The notes beneath the pieces were generated by a model. It was not told the DNA's origin and searched no databases. It saw nothing but the letters and a program-made list of their open reading frames with translations. The translations under genes and the position numbers were made by a program. DNA of 63,200 bases, counting the filler, from Craspedostauros australis (taxonomy: Eukaryota): NCBI GenBank assembly GCA_030167865.1. It is 6 parts of 6 records of this genome, joined end to end, with 100 filler letters (N's around TTAATTAATTAA, not from the genome) between each part and the next. Parts side by side here need not be neighbours in the genome. Positions count along the whole stretch, not along the records: positions 40,745 to 56,770 come from JALAGF010006193.1; 5 more parts are not named here. One strand, 5' to 3'. Below are positions 12,433 through 61,783 of the stretch, in pieces. How positions within the stretch are numbered: position 1 is the stretch's first letter; each line of letters starts with the position of its first letter.

Positions 12433-12444
12433 TTAATTAATTAA
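12433..12444. other. Artificial scaffold-joining spacer TTAATTAATTAA
   Basis: 12-mer with stops in all six frames, flanked by N runs; identical copy at five places in the window. Confidence 0.95.
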
Positions 12445-12488
12445 NNNNNNNNNNNNNNNNNNNNNNNNNNNNNNNNNNNNNNNNNNNN

Positions 12489-14846: not shown

Positions 14847-14890
14847 NNNNNNNNNNNNNNNNNNNNNNNNNNNNNNNNNNNNNNNNNNNN

Positions 14891-14902
14891 TTAATTAATT
14901 AA
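14891..14902. other. Artificial scaffold-joining spacer TTAATTAATTAA
   Basis: Same 12-mer inside N runs. Confidence 0.95.
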
Positions 14903-14946
14903 NNNNNNNNNNNNNNNNNNNNNNNNNNNNNNNNNNNNNNNNNNNN

Positions 14947-40644: not shown

Positions 40645-40688
40645 NNNNNNNNNNNNNNNNNNNNNNNNNNNNNNNNNNNNNNNNNNNN

Positions 40689-40700
40689 TTAATTAATTAA
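40689..40700. other. Artificial scaffold-joining spacer TTAATTAATTAA
   Basis: Same 12-mer inside N runs. Confidence 0.95.
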
Positions 40701-40744
40701 NNNNNNNNNNNNNNNNNNNNNNNNNNNNNNNNNNNNNNNNNNNN

Positions 40745-41992
40745 GGAGAGCACGCACCATGGTGCCAAACGTGCGATTCAGGCGTTCGACTTTGCCATTC
40801 ATCCAGGCACAGTCCGCACCCGTAGGTTTGACGGTGTAGCCGCATTCCTGCACCATGGTGCTGAACTGCCCGGACCGCGCAAGCTCTCCACCCAAGTCCA
40901 CACGCACAGCGCGGTAGCCATGTTGGCGTCCAAAAGAGGTGAGCACTTGGCGTACAGCCATGAGTGGCGGCGACTTGTCCTTGGTTGGAAAAACCCAAAC
41001 GTAGCAGGTCCATGCGTCCACAACAAGGAGGTATGCGCAGAAGCCGTCGACTGACCGCACCACTCGTTGTGTGTCCTTGGTGCGACGCTGCTGACCGTAG
41101 GAACTGTCAGAGGCCCGCATAAAGCCGAAGTCGATGTGGAACCGTGCGCCAGCAACATTCGCGGTGGCGACGTCAGCTGGCCCACGATTGGCGTGTTGAT
41201 AGCCAGCTTGACTGCACACATCGCAATGACGAAGCGGATGCAAGTGTCGTGTGACATCAGGTGGAATGCCGCTGGAGCACTTGACCAGCTTCTGGAGTTG
41301 TCCGACGCCCACATGACCCAGCCGCATATGCCACAGCTCCGTCACCAGCGCCTTGGATGCGACTCGTGCGGCCATAGCGCGGGGTGATGGTCCGCCAAAG
41401 AAGTAGAGGCCGTTGCGAATGAGCAGTGGAATGCGTAGGTCGCGCTGGGGCGAACGGAATACGATGAAAGCGTCACGAGACGTAGACTCGATGCCAAACC
41501 CGTCGAAGCTGTTGTCGGTCTGTCGGATGATGGCCTGTGGCGACACAAGAGTGTCAGCAAGCAGAGGGCATAGGAGCATGCGAACACTGAGGTCTTCACC
41601 GTCGCCGCACTGGATGCATGCGTATCCCGCACCAGGGCATGGCATGGCCGGCGACGAAGAGTCCGCAGCTGCCAGCATCGACGGTGTACCAAAAGGCACG
41701 TACCGCTTCAGCAGCGCAGCATGCGGCGTGGCACACACGTTGGCTCCCAAGTCGCACTGTCCCTTGACGCGATCTCGCCAATCGGAACTAGCGCAACCCG
41801 CGAGCGCGTGTGCGCGGAGCAGGACTGTCGTGGACATAACGAACGGTCTCAGCTCGGTTGGACGATTGCGTCCACAGGCAGCGTCGAGCGGAGATGCATC
41901 GCCAAGAGGCGTGCCTGTATGCATCCCGCGATCATGACCAGGGGCCTTGTACCGCTCACCAGGGAGTTGGTCTACTCCTGGCCGGCAAGCAC
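40745..41992 (-). CDS. pol: Pol (protease-integrase part) of element A, -1 frame relative to gag
   Basis: Frame is open from the GGATTTT heptamer (CACRPGVDQLPGER...MHTG...) to the gap; integrase HHCC and DDE motifs. Confidence 0.85.
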
Positions 41993-41999
41993 AAAATCC
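41951..41999 (-). promoter_or_regulatory. Putative -1 programmed ribosomal frameshift signal
   Basis: Minus strand: G_GAT_TTT (41999-41993), spacer GTGCTT, hairpin GCCG-GCCAG-GAGT-AGACCA-ACTC-C-CTGGT-GAG-CGGT. Confidence 0.75.
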
Positions 42000-43651
42000 T
42001 GGAAGAGAATTTGGGCCGTGCGGTCAAAAGCCTCACCATCACCGTCGCTGGTGCCGTCAGAGCCGTATTCCTCACGCACCATCTTGACGGCCCGTGCAAC
42101 TGTGCGCGAACGGTCACGGGAGTAGGCCTCCTTGTACGCCACCAGGACCTTCTTGGCCAGGTCAGGCTTCTCCTCGCGAAGCTCTGCGAACGCGAGGTCG
42201 CGCGCCCACGGCAAGCATGTCCCAGAACGGTGCCCTGGCCGGCGGCAGGCCTTGCAGAACGCGTCCTTGTCTGGCTGGTAGAAAGCCGACTTCTTGCGCT
42301 CCTCACAACGGCCGCCACCTCGGTTGTCACGCGTGAAGGACCGAGTCTGCGCGCGATGCTCAACAGGCTTGACAGGCGCAGTGGGGTCCCCACGGATGGT
42401 GCGGGCCAAAGTTGACACGTGGAGATGAGGTGGAACTCGACGAGCGCCAGGCACCAGTTCAAGAGACGTCAGGTGGTGCTCGACAGGCACGCCTTGCGAG
42501 CGGAGCCCTTCAAGGAACCGACGAGTGAGTTCCACGTCAGTGACCACACGCTGGTGTACAACTCCCTCTGTCTGTTGGAACTCGAGGAGAGCGTTGGCAT
42601 ACTGGACAACGTCGTTGAAGTCACTGTACACAGGCGCTTGGCTCACAGTGTTCTTGACCCGCATGTACGCATCCAACAGGAGCTGGTGTAAGAACACGAA
42701 GGACAATAGCCAATGAGGCAAGATCCTGAAGCTCCCAGCGTAGAACATGCTGAGGGATGGATGACCCAGGTCGAGCACACCGGATTGCTGTAGCTTCTGC
42801 TCAAGCAACCGACCAGCGCGGAAGACTTGTGCTCTCGAAGCGCCTTTCGGAAAGACCAAGCAGGCGGGGTTGAAAGCTGAGAGAGGGCAGATGTGCGCCT
42901 CAACGTTGGCAGCCTCACTCTGGAGCTGCGTGTACCACTTGAGGACGCTGGTGGGATCGTCCACCTCAAGCTTGACCTCCCAGCGCTGCCAGAAGCCAAG
43001 CGAATCGCGGTCAGGCTCGATGGGCGACTGCACAGCAACGTAGTGAAAGTGCTGGAGCACAGCGGGGTTGTTCTTCGCCATGGAGTAGGAAAGGCCTGAA
43101 TTGGTGATGTAGTCAGCGGCCTCCGCGCCGTCTTCGCCAACCTGGAACGGACTGTTGGTGGTACCGGTGCCAGCCTGGAAGTCGTGAGCAGGGGCAATAC
43201 CCTGATCAACACGCGGGGTTTCCACGCTGGGAGCGTCACCCGTAGGGCCAGGGTGTTCAGCGACACCTTCGCTTGCGCCTGTGCGCGCAGTAGGCTTGCC
43301 GTCAGCAACGTCCGCGGTATCCGGAGGCAAAGCGGGGTCTTTGGGAACGGGGGCAGCGAACTTGCGAATGTCGCTGCGCGTGAGAGTGGGAAACCACTTG
43401 TCGTAGTCTGGATGCGCCAAGGCGTAGGCGCGGAGCCGCTGCATCCCGAAACGCCTGGTGGATGACCCCTGCTTCCAAGCATCAAAGAGCTGGTCGAAGT
43501 AAGCATCGGGGGCGTCAAGGAAATCGTAGAATTCACCGTCAGTGTTGACCCGTGTCTGTTTCGAGAAATCATCGAGCCATTGCCAGTTGAATCGGTCAAA
43601 AAGGGCACGAGTGACCTTTAAGTGATCGACTTGCTCAGTGGTGTCAGCCAT
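41972..43651 (-). CDS. gag: Gag of Copia element A (559 aa)
   Basis: Intact ORF with CX2CX4HX4C near the C-terminus; homologous to 56938-58035. Confidence 0.85.
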   Translation of the reverse strand: MADTTEQVDHLKVTRALFDRFNWQWLDDFSKQTRVNTDGEFYDFLDAPDAYFDQLFDAWKQGSSTRRFGMQRLRAYALAHPDYDKWFPTLTRSDIRKFAAPVPKDPALPPDTADVADGKPTARTGASEGVAEHPGPTGDAPSVETPRVDQGIAPAHDFQAGTGTTNSPFQVGEDGAEAADYITNSGLSYSMAKNNPAVLQHFHYVAVQSPIEPDRDSLGFWQRWEVKLEVDDPTSVLKWYTQLQSEAANVEAHICPLSAFNPACLVFPKGASRAQVFRAGRLLEQKLQQSGVLDLGHPSLSMFYAGSFRILPHWLLSFVFLHQLLLDAYMRVKNTVSQAPVYSDFNDVVQYANALLEFQQTEGVVHQRVVTDVELTRRFLEGLRSQGVPVEHHLTSLELVPGARRVPPHLHVSTLARTIRGDPTAPVKPVEHRAQTRSFTRDNRGGGRCEERKKSAFYQPDKDAFCKACRRPGHRSGTCLPWARDLAFAELREEKPDLAKKVLVAYKEAYSRDRSRTVARAVKMVREEYGSDGTSDGDGEAFDRTAQILFQDFVLAGQE

Positions 43652-44133
43652 GATGTCAACGAAAAAAGAAAAGAGAGAACGCGGAAAGCGATCGAAGCGA
43701 GGAGCGAAGAGAGGAACGAGGAGCTGCGCCTGGATGGGTATTTCCNNNNNNNNNNNNNNNNNNNNNNNNNNNNNNNNNNNNNNNNNNNNNNNNNNCCCCT
43801 GCTTCCAAGCATCAAAGAGCTGGTCGAAGTAAGCATCGGGGGCGTCAAGGAAATCGTAGAATTCACCGTCAGTGTTGACCCGTGTCTGTTTCGAGAAATC
43901 ATCGAGCCATTGCCAGTTGAATCGGTCAAAAAGGGCACGAGTGACCTTTAAGTGATCGACTTGNNNNNNNNNNNNNNNNNNNNNNNNNNNNNAAAAAAGA
44001 AAAGAGAGAACGCGGAAAGCGATCGAAGCGAGGAGCGAAGAGAGGAACGAGGAGCTGCGCCTGGATGGGTATTTCCTATTGCAGAGAGGGTGACGAAGTT
44101 TATGTGGATGGTCTTCCTGTGGAAGCGTATTTC

Positions 44134-44142
44134 CTCATAACC
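44134..44142 (-). promoter_or_regulatory. Primer-binding site GGTTATGAG, complementary to the initiator tRNA-Met anticodon stem-loop
   Basis: Directly follows the LTR end ...TCATCACA on the minus strand; pairs with CUCAUAACC of tRNA-iMet. Confidence 0.75.
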
Positions 44143-44282
44143 TGTGATGATTGGGAGACGATACGGATGTGTTGTGTGTGTGTGATGATGTGAGATTATT
44201 ATGGATACTCTGATTGTCTCCGCAGAGGCTGTGAACATGGGATTTGCTGCTGCTCCGTCTGTCATCCGACCGTGTACCAACA
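44143..44282 (-). repeat. 5' LTR of element A (~140 bp)
   Basis: Starts TGTTGG and ends CA next to the PBS; its start coincides with the end of homology to the element-B LTR. No second copy in the window. Confidence 0.65.
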
Positions 44283-44594
44283 GAACCTGATGATTGATCG
44301 AATCTGATGGAATATTCACAACATATTTCATTCCTGTAGACCTGGTAGTTAAGGTCTCAATGTGACGTCACGTGTGATGGATACTGTGGTATCCGCTGGT
44401 ATCGCGGTATCCTGTCATCGTAATATCGCAGTATCCTCGTGGTATCTCGGTGGTATCGCTGTGACGTCATAGTTTTGGGTCGTGATTCCGCCACCAAATA
44501 TTCTGGATGATGGCGCGCAAGTGTGACTGATNNNNNNNNNNNNNNNNNNNNNNNNNNNNNNNNNNNNNNNNNNNNNNNNNNACACATTCCGACA
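44283..44594 (-). repeat. 3' LTR of element B (gap inside; last ~4 nt displaced by element A)
   Basis: Begins TGTCGGAATGTGT right after the PPT; reverse-complement homologue of 46875-47157. Confidence 0.85.
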
Positions 44595-46874
44595 CCCTTC
44601 CTGTAGGCGTCAGTCATTCGCTGCTGTCGCCAGTGTGTAGGTAGGACTTCTCGTGCTCGCGCTGTGGCTCCGACTTGATGTTCTTCGTGAAGCCGTCGCT
44701 TCGGTTGTTCTCTGATTTGACGAAGATGATTTCGATCAGCTTGTCATTCACCATGTTGCGGACGTANNNNNNNNNNNNNNNNNNNNNNNNNNNNNNNNNN
44801 NNNNNNNNNNNNNNNNNNNNNNNNNNNNNNNNNNNNNNNNNNNNNNNNNNNNNNNNNNNNGGAGTCTTCACTGGCACTCCCACACTCTCCAGGAGTTGCA
44901 TCACAAAGAAGATCTCCTTCGCCGCTTCGGATAGCGCGATGTACTCTGCCTCTGATGAACTGAGTGTCACTGCCTTCTGTTCCTTGGATCGCCAGAGGAT
45001 AGGGACTTGACAGAGGTAGAGAATGAATCCGCCAACACTGATGCAAGTGTCCTTGTCTCCGGCGTATTCGCTGTCGCAGAACATCTCCATGTTCCATGCG
45101 CTGCTGTCTGTCATGACGGGATGGATCTTCAGACCGTAGTGCTTCGTGTCGATGACGTATTTGATGATACGCCGCATCTCCTTGGTTGCAGCCTTGGTCG
45201 GTCCGTCAAGTACCTTCGTCAGCTCTCTGACAGGGTTGGCGATGTCGGGACGCGAATGCTTGATTAAGAATAGCAGCATTCCCACTCCCTTGCGATAGTC
45301 AGCATGCTCTGCTGCATCTACCTTCTGTAATCTGTTCTCTTCGGATGGGCGAACGATGCTCTGGCTTGGCGTCCCTGGCGTCGCGTAGCGCTGCATCTTC
45401 TCCACCTTCCCACCGAATTCAGTGATTAGGTTTCGGATCAGATGTGGCTGGCGTAGGACGGCTCTGGTCTTGTCTGCGTTTATCTGGATGTTGCAGCTGA
45501 GGTAGTCACCCAAACCCTTCTCGATGGTGACCTTGAACTTGCTCTTCTGGATGTCGTTGATGAATTGTTCGAGTGCCTTCTGATGTCCGGAGGAGAAGCA
45601 GTCGTCAACGTAGATTGCCACAATCACTGTTCCATACTTCGTCTTGCAATGGAAAAGGCACGGATCTGCCGCGCTCTGGTCGAATCGCATTCCCTTCAGC
45701 ATTGATACCAGCATCTTGTACCATTGGCGTGCGCTCTGGACCAGCCCGTAGATTGACTTGTGTAGCAGCAGCGCCTCATCAGGTGTGCTGTCCATTCCGT
45801 TTGGACAATTCATGTACACCTCTTCTTCGAGATTGCCGTACAAGAATGCAGTGACAACTTCCACGAGTGTGTAGTCCATCTTCTGCAGTAGCATGATCAC
45901 CATCATCACTTGGTACGTAACATCATGGATGACAGGCAAGTGGTGCTCTTGGTAGTCCACTCCTGCAACCTGTGAGTAGCCGCATGCTACCAGGCGCGCT
46001 CGATAGGTTCCATTGCACTTTAATTTAAACACCCATTTGCACTTGCAGCATCTGCGGTCCCTCGGGATCGATGAGCGCTTGATCTTGCTGTAGACGGATC
46101 GAGCATCCATCGAGCTGAACTCCTTTGCGATGGCGCCTCTGTAAGCCCTTTTCGTGTGTTGCATTTGGATGGTTGAATGCTTGGTTGAAGGTTGATGGCT
46201 CGATGTGTGTCGATGTCTCTCCTGTCTCATCTTGGGTGGCTGCGCAGATCTCCATCTCAAAATCGTCGGTGCTGATTGCGTTGTTTCCAAATAGAGCATC
46301 AGTGATTGCATTGATGGTGTCTGGTGGAGGAGAGTCGCCGTCTTCGTCGTCCGTAGCTTCATTGTTCTCTTCATTCTCGTCGGTAGTGTTGCCGTTGGTT
46401 TCGTCGTCATTTTTGGTCTCCTCGCTGCTGTCCTGATCGTCGTCTGTGTTTCTCTTGTTGTTGTCGGTATCGCTTCCCCTATTGAAGACAGATAGGTTGG
46501 TTGTGAATCTCTTGCTCTCATCCTTCGCCGTCTTCCCTGGCTTGTTGTAGTTTGCAAGGTTGCGCAATTCGCTCTTTCCTTTCGTGTTGGATGGCAGCGA
46601 TGTACGGGATTTCGCATCCACCTTTGAGTTGTGTCTGCTTTGCTCGATGCATCGTTGGCGTCGTTTGCTGCGAGTGGTATCGCGCTTGCTTGGCCGTCGT
46701 GGAGGGTTGGCTGTTGCGACACGGTTCGTTATTGGATCATCATGCGCTTCGTGCGAACGTTTGCGCGAAGTGGGTGGAGTGCGAAGGATGCTTGGCGGGG
46801 CACTCGGTGGGGCAACATCTTCAATGTTGGTCAGCGTGTCATCATTGGCAGGGATCGTGTCAACGTCCTCTTCA
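44283..46874 (-). mobile_element. Degenerate Ty1/Copia element B, 3' half (linker, RT, RNase H, PPT, 3' LTR)
   Basis: CKWVFKLK, ARLVACGYSQ, KSIYGLVQSARQW, IYVDDC, SRPDIA, FCDSEYAGD, LSSSEAEY, DGFTK; frameshift near 46150; PPT AGGAAGGG at 44602-44595. Confidence 0.92.
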
Positions 46875-47157
46875 TGTCGGAATGTGTGTACTCAGATGTG
46901 TATGCACCAGTCACACTTGCGTGCCAGCAGGAATATTTGTTGGTGCAATCACGACCCAAAATTGATGACATCCCAATGATACCACCACGATACCACAAGG
47001 ACACTACGATACTACAATGCCAGGATACCGCGATACCAGCGGATACCACAGTATCCACCACATGTGATGTCATCTCAAGGCCTTACCTACCAGGTCTACA
47101 GAGAATGAAATATGTTTTAAGTAATCCATCAGATTCCATCAATCATCAGATTCAACA
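46875..47157 (+). repeat. LTR of the element-B family in inverted orientation (283 bp)
   Basis: TGTCGGAATGTGTG...CAGATTCAACA; shares CAGTCACACTTGCG, AATCACGACCCAAAA, GATACCGCGATACCAGCGGATACCACAGTATCCA and CTACCAGGTCTACAG with the 44283-44594 copy. Confidence 0.88.
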
Positions 47158-47407
47158 AAACCTGAGAACGGAACAACAATGAGACAACGAGAGAAAGACG
47201 ACAACGTTGACGATCAAGTCAACATCAACGAGCAACATGAGAGCAATATGCATGGAGGTGCAAGAGTATTGCACCAGCAATGAGAGCAAGGAAGAGATGG
47301 ATCAAGAGAGCATCTTGATCATCTCATTCCACATGCACGCTCATCAACAATCAGTAACAACTACAGTAACAAGTAACAGAAACACTTACAGCCAAAGAGT
47401 GTTACAA

Positions 47408-49474
47408 CTACTGATTCTCTGTGCGCGGAGCCTTCCACCAGCGCCAACAACAGAACCAATTGCGTTGGATGTTGTTGTTGTTGGTGTTGTTGTTGTTACT
47501 TTGGATGTCAATTTTGTTGTTGTTGCGTTGGATGTCGATTTTGTTGTTGTTGCTTTGGATGTTGGTGTCATTGTTGTTGCTTTGGATGTTGATTTTGTTG
47601 TTGTTGCTTTGGATGTTGGTGTTGTTGTTGTTGTGTTGGATGTTGGTATTGTTGTTGTTGCTTTGGATGTCGACTTTGTTGTTGTTGCTTTGGATGTTGA
47701 TTTCGTTGTTGTTGCTTTGGATGTCAATTTTGTTGTTGTTGAGTTGGATGTCAATTTCGTTGTTGTTACTTTGGATGTCGACTTTGTTGTTGTTGCTTTG
47801 GATGTTGATTTTGTTGTTGTTGCTTTGGATGTTGATTTTGTTGTTGTTGCTTTGGATATTGGTGTCATTGTTGTTGCTTTGGATGTCAATTTTGTTGTTG
47901 TTGCTTTGGATGTTGGTGTTGTTGTTGTTGCTTTGGATGTCGACTTTGTTGTTGTTGCGTTGGATGTTGATTTTGTTGTTGTTGCTTTGGATGTCGATGT
48001 TGTTGTTGTTGCGTTGGATGTCATTATTGGCATTGGCTGATGCAACGACGTACTCCACACACTCCAGGTAGCCATTGGAGTGTGCCTCATGAAGGGGAGT
48101 GGAACCAGAGTTGTTTTTGCAGTTGATGTCAGCCCTGCATGATTCGATGAGGTACTTCACACACTCCAGCTTCCCGTTCATGCATGCGAAATGAAGGGGA
48201 GTGTCATCATCGTTGTCTTTGCAGTTGATGTCAGCCCTGCATGATTCGATGAGGTACTTCACACACTCCAGCTGGCCGTTGGAGCATGCGTCATGAAGGG
48301 GAGTGGAACCATTGTCGTCCTTGCAGTTGATGTCAGCCCTGCATGATTCGATGAGGTACTTCACACACTCCAGCTGGCCGGTACCGCATGCCACATGAAG
48401 GGGAGTGGGACCATTGCTGTCTTTGCAGTTGATGTCAGCCCTGCATGATTCGATGAGGTACTTCACACACTCCAGCTGGCCGTTCATGCATGCCACATGA
48501 AGGGGAGTCCAACCACAGTAGTTTTCGCAGTTGATGTCAGCCCTGCATGAGTTGATGAGGTACTTCGCACACTCCAGCTGGCCATCGAAGCATGCGTAAT
48601 GAAGGGGAGTGTTTCCATTGTGGCTTTTGTAGTTGACGTCAGCCCCGCATGATTCGATGAGGTACTTCACACACTCGAGGCGGTTGTTGAAGCATGCCCA
48701 ATGAAGGGGAGTCCAGCCATTGTTGTCTTTGCAGTTGGCGTCAGCCTCACATGATTCAATGAGGTACTTCACACACTCCAGTTCGCCATGCATGCATGCC
48801 CGATGAAGGGGAGTGTTACCATAGTTGTCTTTGCAGTTGATGTCGGCCTCACATGAATCGATGAGGTACTGCACACACTCCAGCTCGCCTTCCATACATG
48901 CCCAATGAAGGGGGGTCCAGCCATTGTTGTCTTTGCAGCTGGAGTCGGCCTCACCTGATTCGATGAGGTACTTCACACACTTCAGGTGGCCGTCATGGCA
49001 TGCCCGATGAAGGGGGGTCCAACCACTGTTGTTTTTGCAGTTGGCGTCGGCCTCACATGATTCGATGAGGTACTTCACACACTCCACTTGGACGTTAAAG
49101 CATGCCCAATGAAGGGGAGTCCAACCATAGTCGTCTTTGCAGTTGGCGTCGGCCTCATATGATTCGATGAGGTACTTCACACACTCCAGGCATCCGTTGA
49201 GGCAATTGTTGTAGCATGTGCCTTGGCATGCACAAACAAGGGGAGTGGCACCACGGTTGTTTTTGTAGTTGATGTTTGCCCCACACGATTCGATGAGGTA
49301 CTTCACACACTCCAGGTGGCCGTACGTGCATGCTTTATGAAGGGGAGTGGTACCACTCGCCTCGAAAGCCTTGTCGACATCAACTCCTTCATTCTGCTTC
49401 TTCCATTCCTTCAACATCGACAAGTCACCTGACCCAGCAGCAATAATGAGGTGTTTGCCTGTAACATTTGGCAT
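47408..49474 (-). CDS. Ankyrin-repeat protein (13 TPL-containing repeats, mostly 34 aa) with a C-terminal Asn-rich 9-aa repeat tail
   Basis: Consensus CKDxxGxTPLHxACxxGxLECVKYLIESCxADxN; intact 688-aa ORF. Confidence 0.92.
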   Translation of the reverse strand: MPNVTGKHLIIAAGSGDLSMLKEWKKQNEGVDVDKAFEASGTTPLHKACTYGHLECVKYLIESCGANINYKNNRGATPLVCACQGTCYNNCLNGCLECVKYLIESYEADANCKDDYGWTPLHWACFNVQVECVKYLIESCEADANCKNNSGWTPLHRACHDGHLKCVKYLIESGEADSSCKDNNGWTPLHWACMEGELECVQYLIDSCEADINCKDNYGNTPLHRACMHGELECVKYLIESCEADANCKDNNGWTPLHWACFNNRLECVKYLIESCGADVNYKSHNGNTPLHYACFDGQLECAKYLINSCRADINCENYCGWTPLHVACMNGQLECVKYLIESCRADINCKDSNGPTPLHVACGTGQLECVKYLIESCRADINCKDDNGSTPLHDACSNGQLECVKYLIESCRADINCKDNDDDTPLHFACMNGKLECVKYLIESCRADINCKNNSGSTPLHEAHSNGYLECVEYVVASANANNDIQRNNNNIDIQSNNNKINIQRNNNKVDIQSNNNNTNIQSNNNKIDIQSNNNDTNIQSNNNKINIQSNNNKINIQSNNNKVDIQSNNNEIDIQLNNNKIDIQSNNNEINIQSNNNKVDIQSNNNNTNIQHNNNNTNIQSNNNKINIQSNNNDTNIQSNNNKIDIQRNNNKIDIQSNNNNTNNNNIQRNWFCCWRWWKAPRTENQ
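47465..48025 (-). repeat. Coding minisatellite, 27-bp unit, about 20 copies ([IVT][DN]IQSNNN[KNDE])
   Basis: Plus-strand unit ~TTGTTGTTGCTTTGGATGTYRAYTTTG repeated in tandem. Confidence 0.95.
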
Positions 49475-49649
49475 TTTGAGAGGTTGCAGGACGATTGGCG
49501 CTGGATTGGCTGTCGAGGAGGTGTGTTGTCTGAGCTATCTGTGGCAGAGATATCGATCGTTTGTCTTCAATAACTTGTTTAATTATGAGTACCATGCAAT
49601 GAGTGGCAATTCGATGTCTGTTGCTGATGTGCTCGAGTATGGGGTTGAG

Positions 49650-49784
49650 TGGTCCTCTCCTTCCCTTGATCGCATGGTCCTCTCCTTCCCTTGATCGCAT
49701 GTTCCTCTCCTTCCCTTGATCGCATGTTCCTCTCCTTCCCTTGATCGCATGGTTCTCTCCTTCTCTTGGTCGCATGGTCCTCTC
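49650..49784. repeat. 25-bp tandem repeat, ~5.4 copies (TGKTCCTCTCCTTCCCTTGATCGCA)
   Basis: Read directly; no spacers; about 175 bp upstream of the ankyrin start codon. Confidence 0.95.
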
Positions 49785-51368
49785 TGGTTCTGGTTTGTGC
49801 GACATCGTTGAAATGAGAGTCTTCGACTGATGCGACTACGATGAAGATCATCGAAAAGATCCATGACTGTTTGGACATCTGTCGAAGCACAACGAATCGG
49901 AGAGATCATTCATCGCGACATGCAGATGATTTGAGTGTTTTCATTGGTCTGAACGATCTTGTGGCTTGAGTCTGCCTCCGACAACTCGGCTCCAGCCACA
50001 ACCAACATCACATCAATTCGAAGCCAGCAACGCGAAAGTCTGCGGAGACAGAGAGAGAGAGAGGGAGATGTCCTTGCCACCACCACCATGTGCGCCATGT
50101 GCACCATGGCCCACACTTGCTTGCGTCATCATGGCATCTGTAAGACCGCTGGCCCTCGTCCGCGTACCATTGCATGCACCAACTTGAGGTGTGAAGCAAT
50201 GCCTCGAACAACAATGAAGCCACTGATGCGACTGCGTTTGTTGGTTGCCTTTGGTGGTTGTGATCCACCTCATTTGGATTTGGCTGGTTGCCATCCCACC
50301 GCATTGCAATCATCACCATCCGTGCGGGCAACAAAAATCCTCAACATCAAACCAACACCACATTGCGTATTGGGATGGGTTGGCACCTTCAACAGTCAAC
50401 ATGCGGAGCGATACTGTGCCACCTGCACTGTTCCTGTTGCATGGACCGCCAACATACAATACCATGCGCGTTCTGTCCAGAGGCACCAGCGCCGCTGTGT
50501 TGGCTCGTGGCTTCCAGAGCATTGATGCTCAACCAAGGCGATTGACAGGAACATCCACCTCACGAACAAAGTCGGGAGCACCACGAAGGAGGACATGTGG
50601 GTGTACGGTGCTTGTGGGCCATGAATTGCTGGCTGTGTGTGTTGGAAATCCGGGGTTATGGTAGTAGACTAATCTGTTATCAATCTGTACCGTTTTAGAA
50701 CTGTGAGAACAAACTCCTTGACTCTTCAATTCCAATTCAGCAGCAAGTGAAATGCATAGCACCTCTCCATGATCATGCACTTGTTCATTGTTGCTTTCAT
50801 CTGCTTCACCATCTTGCTTTCATGCTCTCTTCTGTAGATTCATCGTGCATCATCATTGTCGAGATGTACATGTGAGTATATGTCGAGATATACGTGTATA
50901 TGTGCATCATTCACCCGTTATTCTCTCATACGCACTTGGACGGTATAACTACATTCGTGTCAATAGTATAATGTGATTCGTCAGAATTACAGCGGAAATG
51001 GAACACACGAAAATGAGCAAGATTTCTGGAGGAAATTTGCAATCGACGATTTCTGAGAGAATNNNNNNNNNNNNNNNNNNNNNNNNNNNNNNNNNNNNNN
51101 NNNNNNNNNNNNNNNNNNNNNNNNNNNNNNNNNNNNNNATATCATCTGACAGACTGCTGCATCACCAATGGAACATGACATCTGGAGAGCAGAAGGACGC
51201 CTACTGACGTTGACAGGATGTCATCGTGTCGCCACGTCGACATCTGTCTCCAAGTCAGAGCAGGAGGCGAAGATCCGATGACCGAAGAGGATCAGCATCA
51301 TGGATACTGAAGGTGAACTTCAAATGGTAAGTACTCATGGAGTAGGAGCCAGTACTGAACGAACGGAG

Positions 51369-54300
51369 TGTCGAATACGGAGTACGCATCGAACACGGAG
51401 TATCGTGTAACACGAATACACAACGTTGAGAGAGAGAGAGAGAGAATACAGAGAGGAGCGAGAGAGCATCTCGCGTGCCGACTCATAGTCGGTGACCGAA
51501 TCTACGAAACAGATTGAAGCGCCAAGAGCATCGGGCAAGACAACTGGTGTACACCGAGAGGATTGGAGTAACCAACTAATGAAATAGCAAACAGACGACT
51601 ATCAACCAACACCATCTTCCACGATCGCAGGTTACCGTGAGCGGAACTTGCCAACACGTTTATAAACGATAGATCAGGGCAAGCCCGCGGATCAGATCGT
51701 GCGAGGAAGACGAACATCATTCAGGAGCAGCAGGCTGAATGAGCAAGGAAGAGGAATTGAAAGGCATCCCTCTGTCCAATCCGGCTATCAAGCAAGAAGA
51801 AGGTGCAAGCGAGACTCGACTTCAAGAACAGAAGGAAGCAGCCGCGGCTACTGTCCTATCAGGCGCAGAGGCAAGCGCAATCGACGAGACCGAAGAAGAA
51901 CGGTCTGCAAGACTACATCGCGAGGAGAAGAGCATTCTCAAGGCGAGCAAGAAAGAGGAGACTGGTGCGACGGAGAGCATTCGCACAGCCAAACAGAGTG
52001 GGAAAAGTGAGACACCACCAGGAGGAGAATTTGTGACGAAAACAATCTCCGCGCAACTACGAGCGAAAATCGAAGAATCGACAACACAGAAACAGACGGA
52101 AATCAAGGGCGCGAGCGCACCAACGACGAAACAACGAACCAATATGGCGACATCAGCCAACGTGAACAAGCGACGCATCAAGGCGCCGATGTTCAGCGGT
52201 GAACAAGAAGACTACAGCGCATGAGAGTCCCCAGCGAAGGCATACGCTCGTGCGCAGAAGACGAGAGACATGATGTTGGGCAAGACCAAGGTGCCAACAG
52301 TGAGCGAGATCGCGGCCGCCGCCGGCAATGCCAAAGAAGCGATGGAGGAGATCTACAAACTGGGATGCGATTGCTTCAGCGATCTGATCCTCATGATAGA
52401 TGCAGAGAAAGGAAAAGGCAAGCAAGCCATCCAGTACATCAACCAGTGCGTCTCCGACGACTACCCCGAAGGAGATCCACACACAGCGTGGAACGTTCTC
52501 GCGGAGAAGTTCCGTCCATCCGACGCGGCGACGAAGATCAAACTCAAGCGCCAATTCAACAACAAAAAGATGAAGAGAGACTCGGACCCCGATATCTACA
52601 TCACGCGACTCGAGGGTCTACGATCGCGTCTCCACGATGTCAAGTACGAGATCACAGACGAGGAAATGATCATGCAAATCCTCAGCACGGTGAGCGTGGA
52701 ATACAGAACCCACATCGTGAACTTCCAACATCAACTCACGTTTAATCCGGAACTGGTCACCATCAACACGGTGAGAGGAGTACTCCGTACAGCATACACC
52801 ACTCATCAAGGAGGCAAGGCATACATCGACGACTTCCAAGACAGTAACACGAAGAGCAACGACACCGGCTTCACGAGCACCGGTAACTTCAAGGGAACCT
52901 GTCACAACTGTGGTGTGTATGGTCACAGATCCGCCGATTTCCCAGAACGCAAGAAATCGAACAACAAGAAAAACAACAACAACAACAACAACAAGATGAA
53001 CGGAAAGCGCAACAACAACCGCAACAAAGGAAGCGGCTTCAATGGGAAGTGCAACTACTGTGGCATCTTCGGACACCGCGAGGCGGAGTGCCGAAAGAAG
53101 AAGTTCAACAAGAAGAAGAAGGCCGACGAACAGGCCAACACAGCAACACAAGGACACGACAAGAGCGGGCACGAGATGGTACTCTCAGCAAAGGACATGC
53201 CGCTCTGCATGTTGGTGTCTGACAACTACATTGAAGACTCCTTCTTCGATAACTTCGAGTGCGTCGGGAGTGACGACGAAGTGCAGGACGATGAGATCGT
53301 CCCAGAGTGGCTCAGCGAGGAGCCAATCATCCACGAGGTGGATCCAAGACGCGAAGTGAGCCACGAATGCTGCTTCAACGCGCACGACTTGATTGGTCCA
53401 TACGGCGACGGAGCCGAGATGGGCAACGAGGCCAACGATAGTGACATCGAGGAGGCCATGAGTGAAGAGGCCGACGACGAGATCAACGACAATGATAGAG
53501 GCCAAGACGAAACGAATGGCGGCGCGGCGCCGCCTCCTCCAGCGGCGGGGAACAACAGATCGGGCATCTTCAACGAGGATGACAGCGACGAATCCGAGGA
53601 TGGCAATCATCCAGACGACAGCTTCAATCCAAACGAGCGTGTCGTCTACCCAGGGAACATCGACTTCCCACCAATCGAGGATCCCAACAGGTCCAACTAC
53701 CTCCATCGTCATGACACCGTCCCATATGCAACAGAGACAGCATTGGTAATCCAGAAGCAACTCATCTTCGATGCAGTGATGGAAGCAGGAGTGAGCCTGT
53801 TCCCAGGAATCGAACGAGGAGTACTCAGACCGATATGGGTCAACATGATGGGATCCATCCTATCCGAGAACTTCAGATCGATCGAAGAGATTCTGACCAA
53901 TTCGGTTGTGATCAATCGCATACTGGAAGCAGCCGAGACAGAGACGATCCCAGAGACNGATCTTCATTACATCCTTGGAGGATGTATGCGCGTACTCTTA
54001 CGCGAACGACCACGGGTCCATCCATACGATCCAGCCACAGGATCTCATCGGAACAGTACGATTCCATCGGACTTCGCAGAACTACCAAGCGATGACAACA
54101 TGGACGACGAGGAACATCATAATCCATACAACAAAGATGGAGTTCACGAAGATGACGATGACGGCAGCTTCGACGACGAGATAGCTGCAGCAGCTGTGGA
54201 GCAGCTCCACGAGCTGAGCACCAGATACTAGGACAAGGTCAACAAGGACACCTGGCTCGCCGATAGCGGAGCTTCGTGTCACATCGTCAACTCGGACGCC

Positions 54301-56770
54301 GCTCTCTTCAACGTGCGGCACATCAAGTCCTTCGTCCAAGTGGGAGACAGCACGAAGCTGGACTCTCCCAAAGTGGGATCCATTCACTTGAAGGTCAAGC
54401 AACAAGACAACACTGGCCACATCATCCGGCTCGATGATGTGAAGTACACACCGAAAATGGCGGTGAACCTTTTCTCCACGAACAAGGCTCTGTACAACGG
54501 TTACCAGCTTGGTAACAACGGCATTCTGATGGACATCATCAACGGATCCAGAACAAAGATCGTGTTCGATCGAGTCTTCCCTACATCCAACGGATTCATC
54601 ACGGGAGTGCAGATGCATCCCATCATGCCAACGGACGACGACAAGGCTTGCACAGCCATCATCAAGAATCCGTCGAAGGAGATCAGCGCGACGAACTTAC
54701 ATCGAATGCTTGGCCACGCACCGCTCGAGGCCATGAAGCGGGCAGCCGCCCAATACGGATGGAAGATTATCGGCGAGATGCCGGTATGTCGCGACTGCGC
54801 AGTTGCAAATGCGAGAGTGAAGAACATTCCGAAGGCAACAATCCCGAGAGCAACTCGCCACGGCGAACGTCTCTTCATTGACATTAGTTACACTAAACAC
54901 ATAAGCTTCGGAGATAAACGCTACTGGACCCTGATCGTGGACGACTGCACAGATCACTGCTGGAGTTTCTTTCTCAAGAACAAGAGTGATCAACCAGGAT
55001 ACATCAAACGATTCATCCAGACGATCAAGTCACAGACTGGTGACCACCAGATCATCTTCCGAGGTGACAACAGCGGAGAGAACAAATCCACGGAGGATAT
55101 TCTCATCGATGCAGGACTCAACGTGAAATTCGAATACACGGCATCGAACACGCCGCAACAGAACGGAAGAGTGGAACGCAAGTTCGCGTACCTCTATACC
55201 AAGATCCGCTCCATGCTCAATGGAGCACAGCTCAACGAAGAGTATAGGCATGGCCTGTGGGCAGCAGCTGCGAGCACTGCCACCGCCATCGCCAACATCA
55301 CTGTAGCGAAGAATCAGAAGGAGTCACCACATCGCCAATTCTTCGGCAACGATCCACCACATGCGGATGCACTCCGCACATTTGGAGAGGTAGGTGTTGT
55401 GAAGACTACTTATGGCGGGATCACCTCCAAGCTCAAGAACAGAGGAGAAGAGATGGTGTTCATCGGATATGCACACCAACATGCATCAGGAGTGTATAAC
55501 ATGTACAGACCATCGACCAAATCACTGGTCTGTTCTTGCGACATCAAATGGCTAAATCAATCATATGGACAGTTTCGTGGCTGGGCGCCAGCATCAAACA
55601 TATCCAATAAAGCAGGAACAATAGACGCAGACGGCTTCATAACCATCGGACGGAAGGGAGCAATGCCAAGGACGGCAATGCGTCAAGCATCAGAAACGAA
55701 GAGAGTATCTTTCGCTAACAACAACAGGTACTACATCCTATCAGACAGCGACGATGAGGATGATGAGGACGATGGAGTAGTGACTCAACTAATCCATAAC
55801 AACGAGAAAGATCGGAGCGAATCCAATCATGAGGATGACGAGATCCCACCATCCGGCGACGAAGCCGACAATGACACAGGTGTCACTCCTCCGAACACAC
55901 CAGCGAGGTCTACACATGACACACCATCCAGACCTCCACCAAACAAACCAAGCAAGCATGACATAGCTAGAAAGGAGAGAATCCGACGTCACGAAGCACG
56001 AGGCAGGAAGGGAGAAGCTAATCCCAAGTCAACTGTAGGGAAGAGTATTCCCAGAGCTCTGCGCGAGCTCGCAGACTTCAACGAACGAGGTCGAAAGGAG
56101 GAAGGTTATGAGAGTGAGTCATCATCCAACAAAGATAGTGACAAACTCAGCAACGAGATAACCAACGAATCCAACAACGAAACTACAGATGACGAGGAAG
56201 TCATAGACGAAGAAGAAGAGATCGAGATTACCCACCACAGTACAACTGGACTATAAGGAATGAACGCAATCATCACTGAGACACCAGCGATCGACATTGG
56301 ACTGTCGATGCAGGACGAGAACAAGGAACCAGAGAAGCACATCGAACCAACAACATTCGATGGAGCCTTCAATCACCCAGATCCATCCATCGAAAGGGAT
56401 ATCGAGCAGCCATCAAAAAGGAGTTCGACTCCATGGATACACGCAAGGTGTACAGCAAGATCAAACGAGACGCCATCCCACGCGCCGCAGATGCTGCAAG
56501 TGCAAATGGGTCTTCAAGTTGAAACGCGATGGCACACATCGAGCGCGGCTCGTTGCATGTGGCTATTCACAAGTCGCAGGAGTAGACTTCCAAGAGCATT
56601 ACTCACCCGTCATCCATGACGTGACCTATCGGGTCATGATGGTGATCATGCTAATCAAGAAGATGGACTGCGCACTCGTCGATGTTGTAACGGCATTCCT
56701 ACATGGAGACCTTGACGAGGAGATCTACATGAACTGTCCCAACGGGATGGATCATCAACCAGACGAAGCC
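51369..56770 (+). mobile_element. Defective Ty1/Copia element C (same lineage as B): gag, protease, integrase, start of RT; LTR bounds uncertain
   Basis: Gag W..L.EKF..DPDIYITRLE with two knuckles (one Cys-to-Phe); WLADSGASCH; LHRMLGH..CRDC; FIDIS..RGDNSGE..PQQNGRVER; CKWVFKLKRDG..ARLVACGYSQ. Lesions: frameshift ~52220, TAG 54229, TAA 56254, frameshifts ~56390-56490. Candidate LTR TGTCG..CCAACA 51369-51656. Confidence 0.9.
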
Positions 56771-56814
56771 NNNNNNNNNNNNNNNNNNNNNNNNNNNNNN
56801 NNNNNNNNNNNNNN

Positions 56815-56826
56815 TTAATTAATTAA
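56815..56826. other. Artificial scaffold-joining spacer TTAATTAATTAA
   Basis: Same 12-mer inside N runs. Confidence 0.95.
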
Positions 56827-56870
56827 NNNNNNNNNNNNNNNNNNNNNNNNNNNNNNNNNNNNNNNNNNNN

Positions 56871-59800
56871 TTTCACGACTCCTCGTCTCCCGGCAGAGGA
56901 CTTCGACTACGTCACTGACTCTGGAGTTGACTACTCTGTGGCCAACGCCAGCCCCGCGTTCCGGCGACACCGTACCTACCAGGTCCCGCCCGCTCTCGAG
57001 CGTCTGGACTACGGTGTTGGTCAGGCCTGGGACAAGTGGCGCCTGCCCCTCAAGGATGACTCGCCCACTGCGATCTTCAACTGGTATGGCCAGTTCCAGG
57101 CTGCTGCTGCACGTGCGGACTTGCACTCTTGCCCGCTGAGTTCGTTCCAGCCGTCCTCTTCCGTCATTCCTCGCAATGCCCACGGTCACCGTGTCTTTGC
57201 CATGAATGACCAGCTGGTGGTGAAGCTGCAGGCCGATGGTGTCATCAACCTGGAGCATGCCGCGCTTCGCCTGAAGTACACCAGCAGCATCGGCATCATG
57301 CCGCACCGGCTTTCCGCGTACGTCTTCATTCATACACTGCTCTCCGGCGCGTATGATGCCGTCCAGTCGCAGGTCCACAAGGCTCCAGCTTTTCAAGGGT
57401 CCGTTGCGACGTACGCTGAACAGCTGCTCAGCTTCCAGCTTGTGGAGGGCCTCGTGTTTCGCCGACACATCTCCCAGCTGGAGCTCACGCGCCACTTCCT
57501 TGAAGAACTTCGTGGTCATGGGTACGAACTGGGGCACTTCCATACTGCCGTCCGTGGCGTTGCCGTGCCCAAGGACCTTCCCATCAATCTGCGCGTGGAG
57601 CAGCTTGGGCAGGAAATTACGGATCTTCCCCAGCAGCCTGCTCGAGGTGTCGCGCATCGTGTCAACACATGCAGTCAAGGACGCAGTGGTGGTGGTGGCC
57701 GAGGCCAACGTCCCGAGAGGCGCCAGCACGCCTTTTACAAGCCAGTGCCCGGTGCCTTCTGTGAGGCCTGCTGCAACATGGGTCACACCAAGGACACGTG
57801 CAAGACTTTTGGGCGCCATGTGCACATGAACGAGTACGCTGCATCGCATTCGGAGTATGCTGACGCCATGCGTGACAAGTTCCGCGGGCACTTCACCAAG
57901 CAGACCTTCACGGCCAACGCTCGGGCCATCCAGCGCTACAGCGGGGATGAACATGAGTCCATTGCCAACCTCGTGGTGTCTGATGAAGTGCTCGAATCCG
58001 TTGACCAGGATTTTTGGTCTGCCGGCCAGGAGTAAGCGAGCTCTCTGGTGAACGGCCATCTTTCAACAATCGTGACAGCGGGAAACCAGCAGGTCATCAC
58101 GTCGATGAGGTTTCCGTGCTTGCTCTTCCTGCTCCCTCCGCCATCCAGCCTCATAAGCTTATGGGATATGCTGTGGTCAGGGCCTGCCGTGTTCACGCCG
58201 CCCGTACTGATGGATCCGGCATTCGGGCCTGGAATCCTTATGGTGGTGTGGGTCAATGCGACATCGGTGCCAATGTGAGCGCGACTCCGTACAAGGAAGT
58301 CCTGAGGGATTACCAACCTTTCTCCTCACCTCTCATGCTGGCGGCAGCTGATGCTCTCGCTGAGTCCATGGTATGCCCGGGTGAAGGCTTCCTGGACGTT
58401 CCCACATGCGAGGGGTCGGCTATCTCAGTCCGGACTGCGCTTTGCCCCAACCTGGCTGAGACACTCATCTCGCCACAGTCCATCGTGCGACAGAGTGACA
58501 ACACATTCCAGCACTTCACATTTGCATCCACCCTACAAGGCGCCACGCTCATGTTCCATGGTGCAAGCGGTGACTGCTCTGCCTCTATGACTCAGTCCAA
58601 TGGGTTGTACTTCTTCAACGGCGACTCCACACGGTCACCCATGGCGTTCGCCATTCAAACTTCGTCGCCGGCCTTGCAAGCGGAGCTATGGCACCTGCGC
58701 CTGGGACACCCCGGCATGTCGCAGTTGGAGAAGTTGCCTGCGCATGTCACTGGCGTCCCTGGCAAACTACGGTCCAGCGCGCACCCGTTGCGACACTGCA
58801 CGACGTGCAGCCAGGCTCACCGCCAGAAGGCCGCTTGCGGACCCAACGTGGACACTGTCGAACCACATCCGGGCGCTCGGTTCCATGCAGACTTCGGTTT
58901 CATGCGTGCCACCAACGAGGCGTACGGTGCTGCAAAGCCGCGCGGCCGCGATGCCAATCGCCGTGTTGTCCTATCCCTTGAAGGCTTCACGTCATACCTC
59001 CTCATCACGGATGCGTACACGCGATATACGTGGGTGTTTCCAACGAAGGACAGGTCGCCTCCAGTTGAGATATTCTCCAAACTTCTGGGTGATTTTGGCC
59101 GACGTTCGGGTCATCGCGCGGTGCGTGTCGATACAGGCAGGGAGCTTGCTCGATCCGGAGCTTTCCAAGTGGCCGTCTGCGATGCTGGGTACAATCTCGA
59201 GCCCACTGGTGCTGGTTGCTCCTGGATGAATGGGAAGGTGGAGCGGCTGAACCGCACTTTTGGCGTCATGACGAGGGCCCTACTGTATTCCGCGGGTCTC
59301 AAGCCGCAGTTCTGGGCCCTTGCGCTCGTGCATTCGGTCTACCTGAAGAACCGGTTGTGGCATGCGTCCATCTCCAAGACTCCCTACGAGCTCCAACATG
59401 GGGTCAAGCCGGATCTCGGGCACCTACGTGTTTTTGGGTCTCGTGTTACTGTCAGGAAGCCAGGACATCCACCTGCCAAGCTTGACGTTCACACGTACAA
59501 TGGAATCTTCGTGGGTCACACGGCGACACCGACTCTCCACAAATACTACGACCTTGATTCTGGCCGCATCAAAACAGCTGGCAACATCGTCTTCGACGAG
59601 GTTCACTTCACGTCCAGCAGTCGGCCTCCAGGACCACAACTCCTGTTCGAACTGGGATTCCGTGACCCTCGAGGTGATGCAACACTGATCCCTACGAAGG
59701 ACGGCGCACTCAAGGGTGACAATGCGGATGCAGGGCGTACACCCGTTGAGTCCTGCGTTGCGTGTGGTGATTCGGAGTTACACGCAGCCGCTGCCACGTG

Positions 59801-61683
59801 CTCATCCACACCTCATCGTTTCGTGCGGTCACTGGAGATGACGAGTGAGCCTTTCGGTTTTCCGTTCGCGCAGGACATTGAGGTGAATGGATCCGATCCA
59901 TGTGCTGGGTTGGTGCTGGTGCCCGACGATGCTCGAGGGCGACTGCAGCTGCAAACATGCAAGCCTGGCACTCCGGCCGCTCGCATTCCCCGGTGGCGAT
60001 CGCGTCTTCGGTCTGCACATCTGCTNNNNNNNNNNNNNNNNNNNNNNNNNNNNNNNNNNNNNNNNNNNNNNNNNNACGTGTGTTTGGGTCTCGTGTCACT
60101 GTCCGGAAGCCAGGGCATCCGCCTGCCAAGCTTGACGTTCACACGTACAATGGCATCTTTGTGGGACACACGGCGACACCGACTCTCCACAAATACTACG
60201 ACCTTGATTCTAGCCGCATCAAAACAGCTGGCAACATCGTCTTTGACGAGGTTCACTTCACGTCCAGCAATCGGCCTCCAGGACCACAACTCCTGTTCGA
60301 ACTGGGATTCCGTGACCCTCGAGGTGATNNNNNNNNNNNNNNNNNNNNNNNNNNNNNNNNNNNNNNNNNNNNNNNNNNCACTTCACGTCCAGCAATCGGC
60401 CTCCAGGACCACAACTCCTGTTCGAACTGGGATTCCGTGACCCTCGAGGTGATGCAGCACTGGTCCCTACGAAGGACGGCGCACTCAAGGGTGACAATGC
60501 GGATGCAGGGCGTACACCCGTTGAGTCCTGCGTTGCGTGTGGTGATTCGGAGTTACACGCCGCCGCTGCCACGTGCTCGTCCACACCTCATCGTTTCGTG
60601 CGGTCGCTGGAGATGACAAGTGAACCTTTCGGTTTTCCGTTCGCGCAGGACATTGAGGTGAATGGATCCGATCCATGTGCTGGGTTGGTGCTGGTGCCCG
60701 ACGATGCTCGAGGGCGACTGCAGCTGCAAACNTGCAAGCCTGGCACTCCGGCCGCTCGCATTCCCCGGTGGCGATCGCGTCTTCGGTCTGCACATCTGCT
60801 TACCCTGGATGGCGACGACGTGTTGCGCGGTGATGATGTCGTCCGCATCGTTTCAAACGCGCGGCAGCGTCAGACGAATCCAATCGTCGCCATCTTCGCT
60901 TTTGATGAGGCGCGCAATGCTCTCTCCCAACAAGGTGTTCCGCAGCTCTACTTCGACCAGCTTCGACATGTGAAGGACGTCATCCGGCAGATATCGCCAC
61001 GCGCTCGCGCCGTTGCTGCTGCACCCAAACTCACACGGCGCAAGTTGCTGTTGGGCGATGACTGGGATGAGTGGCAAGCTGCGGAGTTCAAGCAGATGGA
61101 GCAATACCACCACCAAGGGATGTTCGGTGATCCAGTGGAGCCTCCGTCTGGCGCAGCTGTGTTCAACTGGGTCTGGGTGTATGTTGTGAAAACCCACGAG
61201 AACAATCGCAAGAAGGCCCGCGCGGTGTGTGATGGTTCCACCCGAGGAGGCAACGTCCGTGTATTTGGTCACACGTATGCTGCCACGCCCGATCTCACCG
61301 AATTCCGCATTCTTGTGGCCATCGCCGCTGTCCAGCGCCTACTCATCTTTGGAGCTGATGTTGCCAATGCATTTGCTGAAGCTCCAGCCAGCGCCCAGCG
61401 ATACTACATGAAGGTGGACGATCAGTTCCGTTCGTGGTGGGAACACAAACATGATGCTACCATTCCGCGTGGCCATGTTGTGCCTGTCCTCAAGAACCTC
61501 CAAGGTCACCCTGAGGCGCCTTGGCAGTGGAGCATTCATGTCAATGGAATCATGCGCCGCATGGGCCTGACGTCAACCACCCACGCTCCATGTCTCTACA
61601 CTGGGGTCGTTCAGAGCGAGCGCGTCTACATTTTGCGGCAGGTCGACGATTTCGCAGTGGCCACCGCCCGACAGAGCACCTAC
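56871..61683 (+). mobile_element. Ty1/Copia (CoDi-like) element D, internal part: gag (to 58035), then pol in the -1 frame (protease, integrase, PDZ-like segment, RT)
   Basis: Knuckle CEACCNMGHTKDTC; CDIGAN; LWHLRLGH..CTTC; FHADFGF..RVDTGREL..NGKVER; HLRVFGS; WVYVVK..KARAVCDG; ADVANAF; LQGHPEA; LRQVDDF. Segments 60076-60328 and 60379-60800 repeat 59426-60025 across gaps (assembly artefact). Confidence 0.93.
58008..58056 (+). promoter_or_regulatory. Putative -1 programmed ribosomal frameshift signal
   Basis: G_GAT_TTT (58008-58014), spacer TGGTCT, hairpin GCCG-GCCAG-GAGT-AAGCGA-GCTC-T-CTGGT-GAA-CGGC (58021-58056). Confidence 0.75.
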
Positions 61684-61727
61684 NNNNNNNNNNNNNNNNN
61701 NNNNNNNNNNNNNNNNNNNNNNNNNNN

Positions 61728-61739
61728 TTAATTAATTAA
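61728..61739. other. Artificial scaffold-joining spacer TTAATTAATTAA
   Basis: Same 12-mer inside N runs. Confidence 0.95.
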
Positions 61740-61783
61740 NNNNNNNNNNNNNNNNNNNNNNNNNNNNNNNNNNNNNNNNNNNN

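Follow-up and report, generated by a model that had tools for sequence, protein, structure and literature searches.

The gag and pol genes of two retrotransposons in DNA from Craspedostauros australis are joined by a short conserved cassette that is probably a programmed -1 ribosomal frameshift signal, located at the gag-pol junction of a Ty1/copia lineage in a protist-like eukaryote. Slippage, a certain efficiency of slippage and a stimulatory role for a downstream hairpin are what the reading frames, the heptamer, the spacing, the fold and the conservation would lead one to expect.

The window, by which we mean the whole stretch of DNA that was analysed, consists of 63.2 kb of joined contigs from the C. 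australis (Eukaryota) assembly GCA_030167865.1. It looks eukaryotic, with long intron-poor ORFs, among them AMP-binding/DIP2-like, sulfotransferase, amino-acid transporter, CwfJ, signal peptidase and ankyrin genes, and with several Ty1/copia elements. The start of the AMP-binding (DIP2-like) gene is found twice, at 1-1449 and at 9440-10876 (minus strand), 9439 bp apart and 92-95% identical, as a segmental duplication or a haplotig. The ankyrin-repeat ORF at 47381-49355 (minus strand, 688 aa) is made up of tandemly repeated DNA, whose near-perfect units recur with periods of 27 and 102 nt. A third copia element, C, lies at 52270-56818 on the plus strand and has a Retrotran_gag_2 domain in its gag. 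This gag, which shares its frame with pol, ends with a TAG at 54229-54231, and a protease-like DSGAS motif follows about 15 codons later; the TAG may be a readthrough site or simply a mutation. The contig joins, at 12389-12488, 14847-14946, 40645-40744, 56771-56870 and 61684-61783, each consist of 12 bases set between two runs of 44 N, and in the frames seen these bases give a stop ('LIN' ends). The two elements that carry the cassette, A and D, are both cut by such joins:

40745-56770: contig of element A, with the element on the minus strand and cut at 40745
41972..43651, minus strand: gag ORF of element A, 559 aa, ending in QDFVLAGQE and then TAG (41974-41972)
40745..41993, minus strand: pol of element A in the -1 frame, with the protease and the N-terminal part of the integrase, cut by the contig end at 40745
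56871-61683: contig of element D, with the element on the plus strand and cut at both ends
56872..58035, plus strand: gag of element D, its 5' end truncated by the contig start, ending in QDFWSAGQE and then TAA (58033-58035)
58014..61683, plus strand: pol of element D in the -1 frame, with protease, integrase and reverse transcriptase, cut by the contig end

A and D are Ty1/copia (Pseudoviridae) elements: D has a copia-type reverse transcriptase with the integrase upstream of it, and A carries PF13976. The Pfam matches on which this assignment is based are gag_pre-integrs (PF13976, E 2.9e-09) in the pol of A and, in D, PF13976 together with SH3_retrovirus (PF25597) at 58014-60100 and RVT_2 (PF07727) at 60598-61680. 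A search against Pfam gave no family for Gag; a CCHC-like knuckle in Gag A aligns with Gag D and with relatives. In a repeat search no LTR pair was found for A or D, both of which are cut by contig ends. The pol of D is broken by two 50-N gaps with duplicated flanks. Direct repeats that are 96-100% identical (43466-43633 / 43796-43963 and 59426-59903 / 60076-60678) flank 29-N and 50-N gaps within the elements or adjacent to them and duplicate part of this pol; in all likelihood they stem from overlaps in the scaffolding or from duplicated haplotypes and not from biology. Since the Gag proteins of A and D share only 37% of their amino acids and the pol parts about 47%, the two elements represent different families and not recent copies of each other. 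In both, long open reading frames for gag and pol are found on either side of the junction, and pol sits in frame -1 with respect to gag and overlaps it.

At this junction, the same succession of parts is found in A and D, namely CAG, the heptamer G_GAU_UUU, a spacer of 6 nt and a bulged hairpin of 36 nt:

42001-41951, minus strand: whole cassette of element A
41993..41999, minus strand: slippery heptamer G_GAU_UUU of element A, in the gag frame, with Asp-Phe codons
41987..41992, minus strand: 6-nt spacer of element A, 4 of its 6 bases differing from D
41951..41986, minus strand: bulged hairpin of element A, 36 nt, from folding and the pair table
58006-58056, plus strand: whole cassette of element D, counterpart of that in A
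58008..58014, plus strand: slippery heptamer G_GAU_UUU of element D, in the gag frame
58015..58020, plus strand: 6-nt spacer of element D, compared with that of A
58021..58056, plus strand: bulged hairpin of element D, 36 nt, with the same architecture as in A

The first-pass annotation had given the minus-strand string of the cassette in A exactly, though with the range 41951-41999, so that the CA of the initial CAG falls 2 nt outside it. Its description of how A and D differ holds in every part. The hairpin has a lower stem of 4 bp, formed by GCCG and CGGY, three bulged bases on the 3' side, and an upper stem of 9 bp that is broken by one bulged pyrimidine and capped by a 6-nt loop. All 13 pairs are standard in A as well as in D. 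As had been claimed, spacer and loop change in sequence while keeping their length of 6 nt each (4/6 and 3/6 bases differ), and the bulged bases vary, with C in A and U in D for the 1-nt bulge, and GAG in A and GAA in D for the 3-nt bulge. The two changes in the stem, likewise as described, preserve pairing: A has U-A as the loop-closing pair and G-U as the basal one, where D has U-G and G-C. The gag stop codon, which takes in the loop-closing U together with loop bases 1 and 2, is TAG in A and TAA in D, again as noted earlier; it lies 27 nt past CAG.

The -1 frame opens 30 nt (A) or 9 nt (D) upstream of the shift codon, and the overlap of gag and pol, counted from the upstream -1 stop to the gag stop, amounts to about 57 nt in A and about 36 nt in D. 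Through the cassette, this frame encodes CRPGVDQLPGER in A and CRPGVSELSGER in D, so that the reported CRPGVxxLxGER is indeed common to both. There is no canonical X_XXY_YYZ heptamer within the gag/pol overlap of either element. G_GAU_UUU, which lies in the gag frame in both, does not strictly follow this scheme and is non-canonical because the re-pairing of GAU on GGA in the P site is imperfect.

The cassette is better conserved than its surroundings. Over its 49-nt block, A and D are identical at 39 of 49 positions, and the 150 columns upstream and downstream are identical at 56/150 and 69/150, that is, 37-46%. In the 2456-column alignment of gag-pol from A and D (50% identity overall), a score of at least 39 matches is reached in 10 of 2408 windows of 49 nt, and these 10 make up three peaks, at the cassette, at 41558-41510 (a protease motif) and at 40812-40757 (an integrase motif). 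The sliding-window identity of A and D thus has a peak at the block, as the first-pass annotation had predicted, and it is one of three. When an 18-nt pattern was searched for in the window, 20 matches with up to 3 mismatches were obtained against 18 expected; with at most 1 mismatch, only A and D remain, both at gag-pol junctions.

The distribution of the differences within the block follows the predicted structure. Differing bases are found at 2 of 26 paired positions versus 9 of 16 unpaired ones in spacer, loop and bulge (Fisher p=0.0009). Furthermore, identical residues are encoded by identical codons more often inside the cassette than outside it, both in gag (7/7 versus 55/126, or 44%) and in pol (8/9 versus 74/181, or 41%), and the one synonymous difference within the pol-frame peptide, GAG against GAA, is located in the 3-nt bulge. 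The proteins themselves are poorly conserved on either side, with 18/87 identities in the 90 residues of Gag before the cassette and 11/60 in pol just after it. The 3' arm of the hairpin is conserved even though it lies past the gag stop, where only poorly conserved pre-protease pol is coded. This avoidance of paired bases, the frozen synonymous sites and the conservation of the 3' arm all speak for selection on the RNA. As the 5' arm is coding in two frames, part of its conservation could reflect protein constraint. Moreover, between A and D, the two DNA copies compared, no double compensatory change is found in the GCCG/CGGY and upper stems. Both stem changes are one-sided transitions via G-U wobble and therefore compatible rather than double compensatory, and with two copies covariation is limited to these.

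When folded in isolation, the 36-nt hairpin has a predicted free energy of -15.8 kcal/mol in A (z -2.30, 7/200 shuffles fold as well) and of -17.0 kcal/mol in D (90% of the ensemble, z -2.36, 4/200 shuffles). In longer contexts, the z-scores are -2.79 (A) and -0.91 (D) for 62 nt, and -0.27 (A) and -1.10 (D) for 66 nt. The predicted stability is thus moderate and the thermodynamic signal modest. The 9-bp upper stem is present in every minimum free energy fold, and the pairing of the lower stem appears ambiguous. For A and D together, RNAalifold favours another lower stem, in which spacer columns 10-14 pair with columns 49-53, with two changes on both sides. This stem starts directly after the heptamer and so would leave no spacer; it would be melted when a ribosome occupies the shift site. 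The spacer measures 6 nt with the GCCG/CGGY lower stem and 10 nt with the upper stem alone. With the former, the modelled structure would begin 6 nt past the heptamer, within the 5-9 nt expected for -1 signals. A pseudoknot between the loop and downstream sequence was rejected, being no better than shuffles (231/2000 in A, 1534/2000 in D). In Rfam, the region in A had no match at E values up to 10, and that in D had two at chance level only, on the opposite strand; no curated frameshift family was matched. The earlier claim that selection acts on RNA structure is therefore supported by the substitutions, the synonymous sites and the 3' arm, though less strongly than had been implied, given the missing double compensation, the other lower stem and the modest z-scores.

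Relatives of the two elements extend the comparison to other sources. For the pol of D, about 23 relatives at 31-46% identity are found in ENA, JGI and other assemblies, followed by generic copia elements; the relatives carry PF13976 and PF07727. A word-based homology search with Gag A gave no match, and the transframe peptide, represented by pol residues 1-40, retrieved nothing either. In the ESM Atlas, Gag A retrieves only unnamed or zf-CCHC clusters, at 0.92-0.93, which is not informative. A profile made from the two Gag sequences, on the other hand, detects 59 relatives among 1.84 billion representatives. Twenty-five of these were set aside, because the matched region does not extend to profile position 330 or breaks off over 100 residues short of the protein's end, and none of the 25 has DF near its end. 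Among the 34 that reach the C-terminus, 21 have DF in their last 10 residues, compared with a control rate of 48/2207 for stretches of ten residues taken from other parts of these proteins. Many end in DF plus 0-1 residue, or in DF followed by R, Q or H and then SPG, and five clusters (P0066-P0069 and P0075) end in DFxxAG followed by Q or H, as in A and D. In an alignment of 7 Gag sequences, 16 columns are invariant, of which four form the CCHC knuckle and four are the specified residues (D, F, A, G) of the terminal DFxxAG. P0066 derives from a 5817-nt transcript in a marine-eukaryote transcriptome and ends in AGQE, so at least one member of the family is transcribed with the stop in place. 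From these protein sequences one may expect that the relatives, too, have a stem and GAU_UUU codons with a G in front of them. The remaining 13 of the 34 have no terminal DF, and several end in SDE or similar. Acidic tails (SDE, TSE, HEE) take the place of DF in P0098, P0107, P0115, P0120 and P0121, which hints that the lineage has a third type of gag end.

A scan of metagenomes with the pol alignment yielded 82 relatives, of which 80 loci were kept. The only close one (L001, 47%) has no gag-pol junction, and three others (L002-L004) belong to a more distant lineage. In two of these copia loci, with about 30% pol identity, gag and pol are in the same frame with UGA-CGG between them (L002:3414-3495 and L003:3278-3360). 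An extended stem-loop starts 1 nt past the stop, with 19 predicted pairs, 3 of which are changed on both sides between the loci. This junction looks like a stop-codon readthrough signal, judging from the modelled stem, and we take it to resemble the published signals made up of UGA-CGG and a 3' stem. Viral contigs gave no match, either to the pol alignment or to the exact cassette pattern, and contigs of prokaryote genomes gave one distant match to the pol alignment (L082, 24% identity). The exact cassette pattern was found a single time, in a Bacteroidia MAG (L081), which is about the chance number that we estimate for 20 fixed bases in that collection.

How the cassette would work can be pictured as follows. 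Most ribosomes would stop at the gag stop, 7 codons past the Asp-Phe codons, and release Gag alone. A minority would pause while the P site holds tRNA-Asp (GAU) and the A site tRNA-Phe (UUU), because the bulged hairpin 6 nt downstream would then sit at the mRNA entrance. Both tRNAs could slip by one base in the 5' direction (GAU to GGA, UUU to UUU), and translation would go on in the pol frame, giving a Gag-Pol fusion that reads QDF and then CACRPGV in A, or QDF and then LVCRPGV in D.

It is conceivable, though unlikely, that the ribosome shifts at G_GAU_UUU while the conservation downstream is at the protein level, in DFxxAGQE and in the transframe CRPGV..L.GER, for example as a protease cleavage or docking site, with the hairpin being incidental or a weak stimulator. 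The dual coding of the 5' arm, the invariance of DFxxAG in 7/7 aligned Gags, the modest z-scores and a stem that has no double compensatory change would all be in accordance with this. A constraint on protein is disfavoured, however, by synonymous sites that are frozen in 7/7 and 8/9 codons against a background of about 42%, by substitutions that cluster in the spacer, the loop and the bulges, with GAG/GAA itself in a bulge, and by pol residues that are barely conserved immediately after the cassette (11/60). Somewhat less probable still is that Pol is made by another route, be it transcriptional slippage on a T run, reinitiation or internal initiation, and that the cassette serves this route, or packaging or dimerisation. 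The heptamer region does contain a T run, of T4 in A and T5 in D, but these runs are short, and we know of no polymerase-slippage site that does not need a longer homopolymer. A pol-frame ATG is present 69 nt past the shift codon in A; yet the first such ATG lies at +147 nt in D, so its position is not conserved, and it falls within poorly conserved sequence. Furthermore, heptamer, 6-nt spacer and hairpin together have the classic geometry of a -1 ribosomal signal.

Finally, A and D might be dead copies, their shared frame break and local similarity being due to chance or to an artefact of assembly. The assembly is fragmentary, with N gaps that have duplicated flanks, and both elements are cut by contig ends. 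Against this stand the identical junction on different contigs despite 37% Gag identity, the long open gag and pol frames on both sides, the identity peak at the cassette, and the Gag relatives from other sources that stop at the same place, which together make the idea very improbable. The first-pass annotation had argued that the junctions are not two chance frameshift mutations, and such mutations are effectively excluded, because the same architecture is shared by two elements with 37% Gag identity, the overlap of only about 36 nt in D contains G_GAU_UUU, and distant Gags end in DF. A programmed -1 ribosomal frameshift thus seems the best explanation of the cassette.

Several known systems are reminiscent of this arrangement. 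Retroviruses and Ty3/gypsy elements share with A and D a heptamer that is read in the gag frame and followed, after some 6 nt of spacer, by a stem-loop, together with a pol in -1, so that Gag-Pol would be made at a set ratio. The gag-pol signal of HIV-1, for instance, consists of a U_UUU_UUA site and a hairpin. A and D differ from these in belonging to the Ty1/copia superfamily, in which the integrase precedes the reverse transcriptase, and in their non-canonical heptamer. The review by Atkins et al. (PMC5009743) cites a 2003 survey in which 28 of 51 animal retroelements had pol in -1, and gives G_GAU_UUU, followed by _UGG_UAG, as the -1 shift site of PEMV. The motif has also been reported for umbraviruses, totiviruses, unirnaviruses and insect flaviviruses. 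With the umbravirus PEMV2 there are several likenesses: the heptamer is identical, the next codon in element D (UGG) also matches the PEMV context, a 0-frame stop lies close downstream, and downstream RNA structure is involved (PMC4737148). PEMV2 is, however, a plant RNA virus that expresses its polymerase in this way and has, according to the same source, three hairpins near the site (PMC4737148). A and D have a single local hairpin and a stop 7 codons past the shift codons, and no homology is implied.

Within their own superfamily, the recoding that we find documented takes other forms. The usual description of Ty1/copia elements is that gag and pol form one ORF or, in yeast, are joined by a +1 shift, and a 2003 study by Gao and co-workers is said to have described copia elements as mostly single-ORF. 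The yeast +1 shift uses a rare-tRNA pause and not tandem slippage with a downstream hairpin. The yeast elements Ty1, Ty2 and Ty4 are similar to A and D in superfamily and in making Gag-Pol by recoding (PMC7175516), but they shift in the opposite direction, +1. The same source lists a +1 shift for Ty1-Ty4 and a stop codon for Tca2 (PMC7175516). The CoDi elements of diatoms (Maumus et al. 2009, PMC2806351) are, like A and D, copia elements of marine protists; their main text, however, gives no frameshift site, heptamer or structure (PMC2806351). Our literature search turned up no report of copia elements with a -1 slippery site, although Gao et al. 2003 and the supplement of Maumus 2009 may list one. 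While the mechanism is a textbook one, the host superfamily, the lineage and the DF hallmark thus appear to be undescribed in the literature searched.

It is possible to go a step further, at about even chances, and to suppose that a whole marine and freshwater protist clade of Ty1/copia shifts -1 on the non-canonical G_GAU_UUU of the umbraviruses, of which the terminal DF is the trace, and that a sister clade has switched to UGA-CGG readthrough with an extended 3' stem-loop. If so, a single retroelement lineage would show an evolutionary exchange between two recoding mechanisms. A conserved -1 signal of the retroviral type in protist copia elements would widen the known range of recoding in Ty1/copia, and the cassette would add an example from a cellular genome of a G_GAU_UUU shift site that is otherwise known from RNA viruses. 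It would also provide a rule for annotation: where a Gag ends a few codons past Asp-Phe, gag and pol should be joined, and the element should not be taken for a pseudogene.
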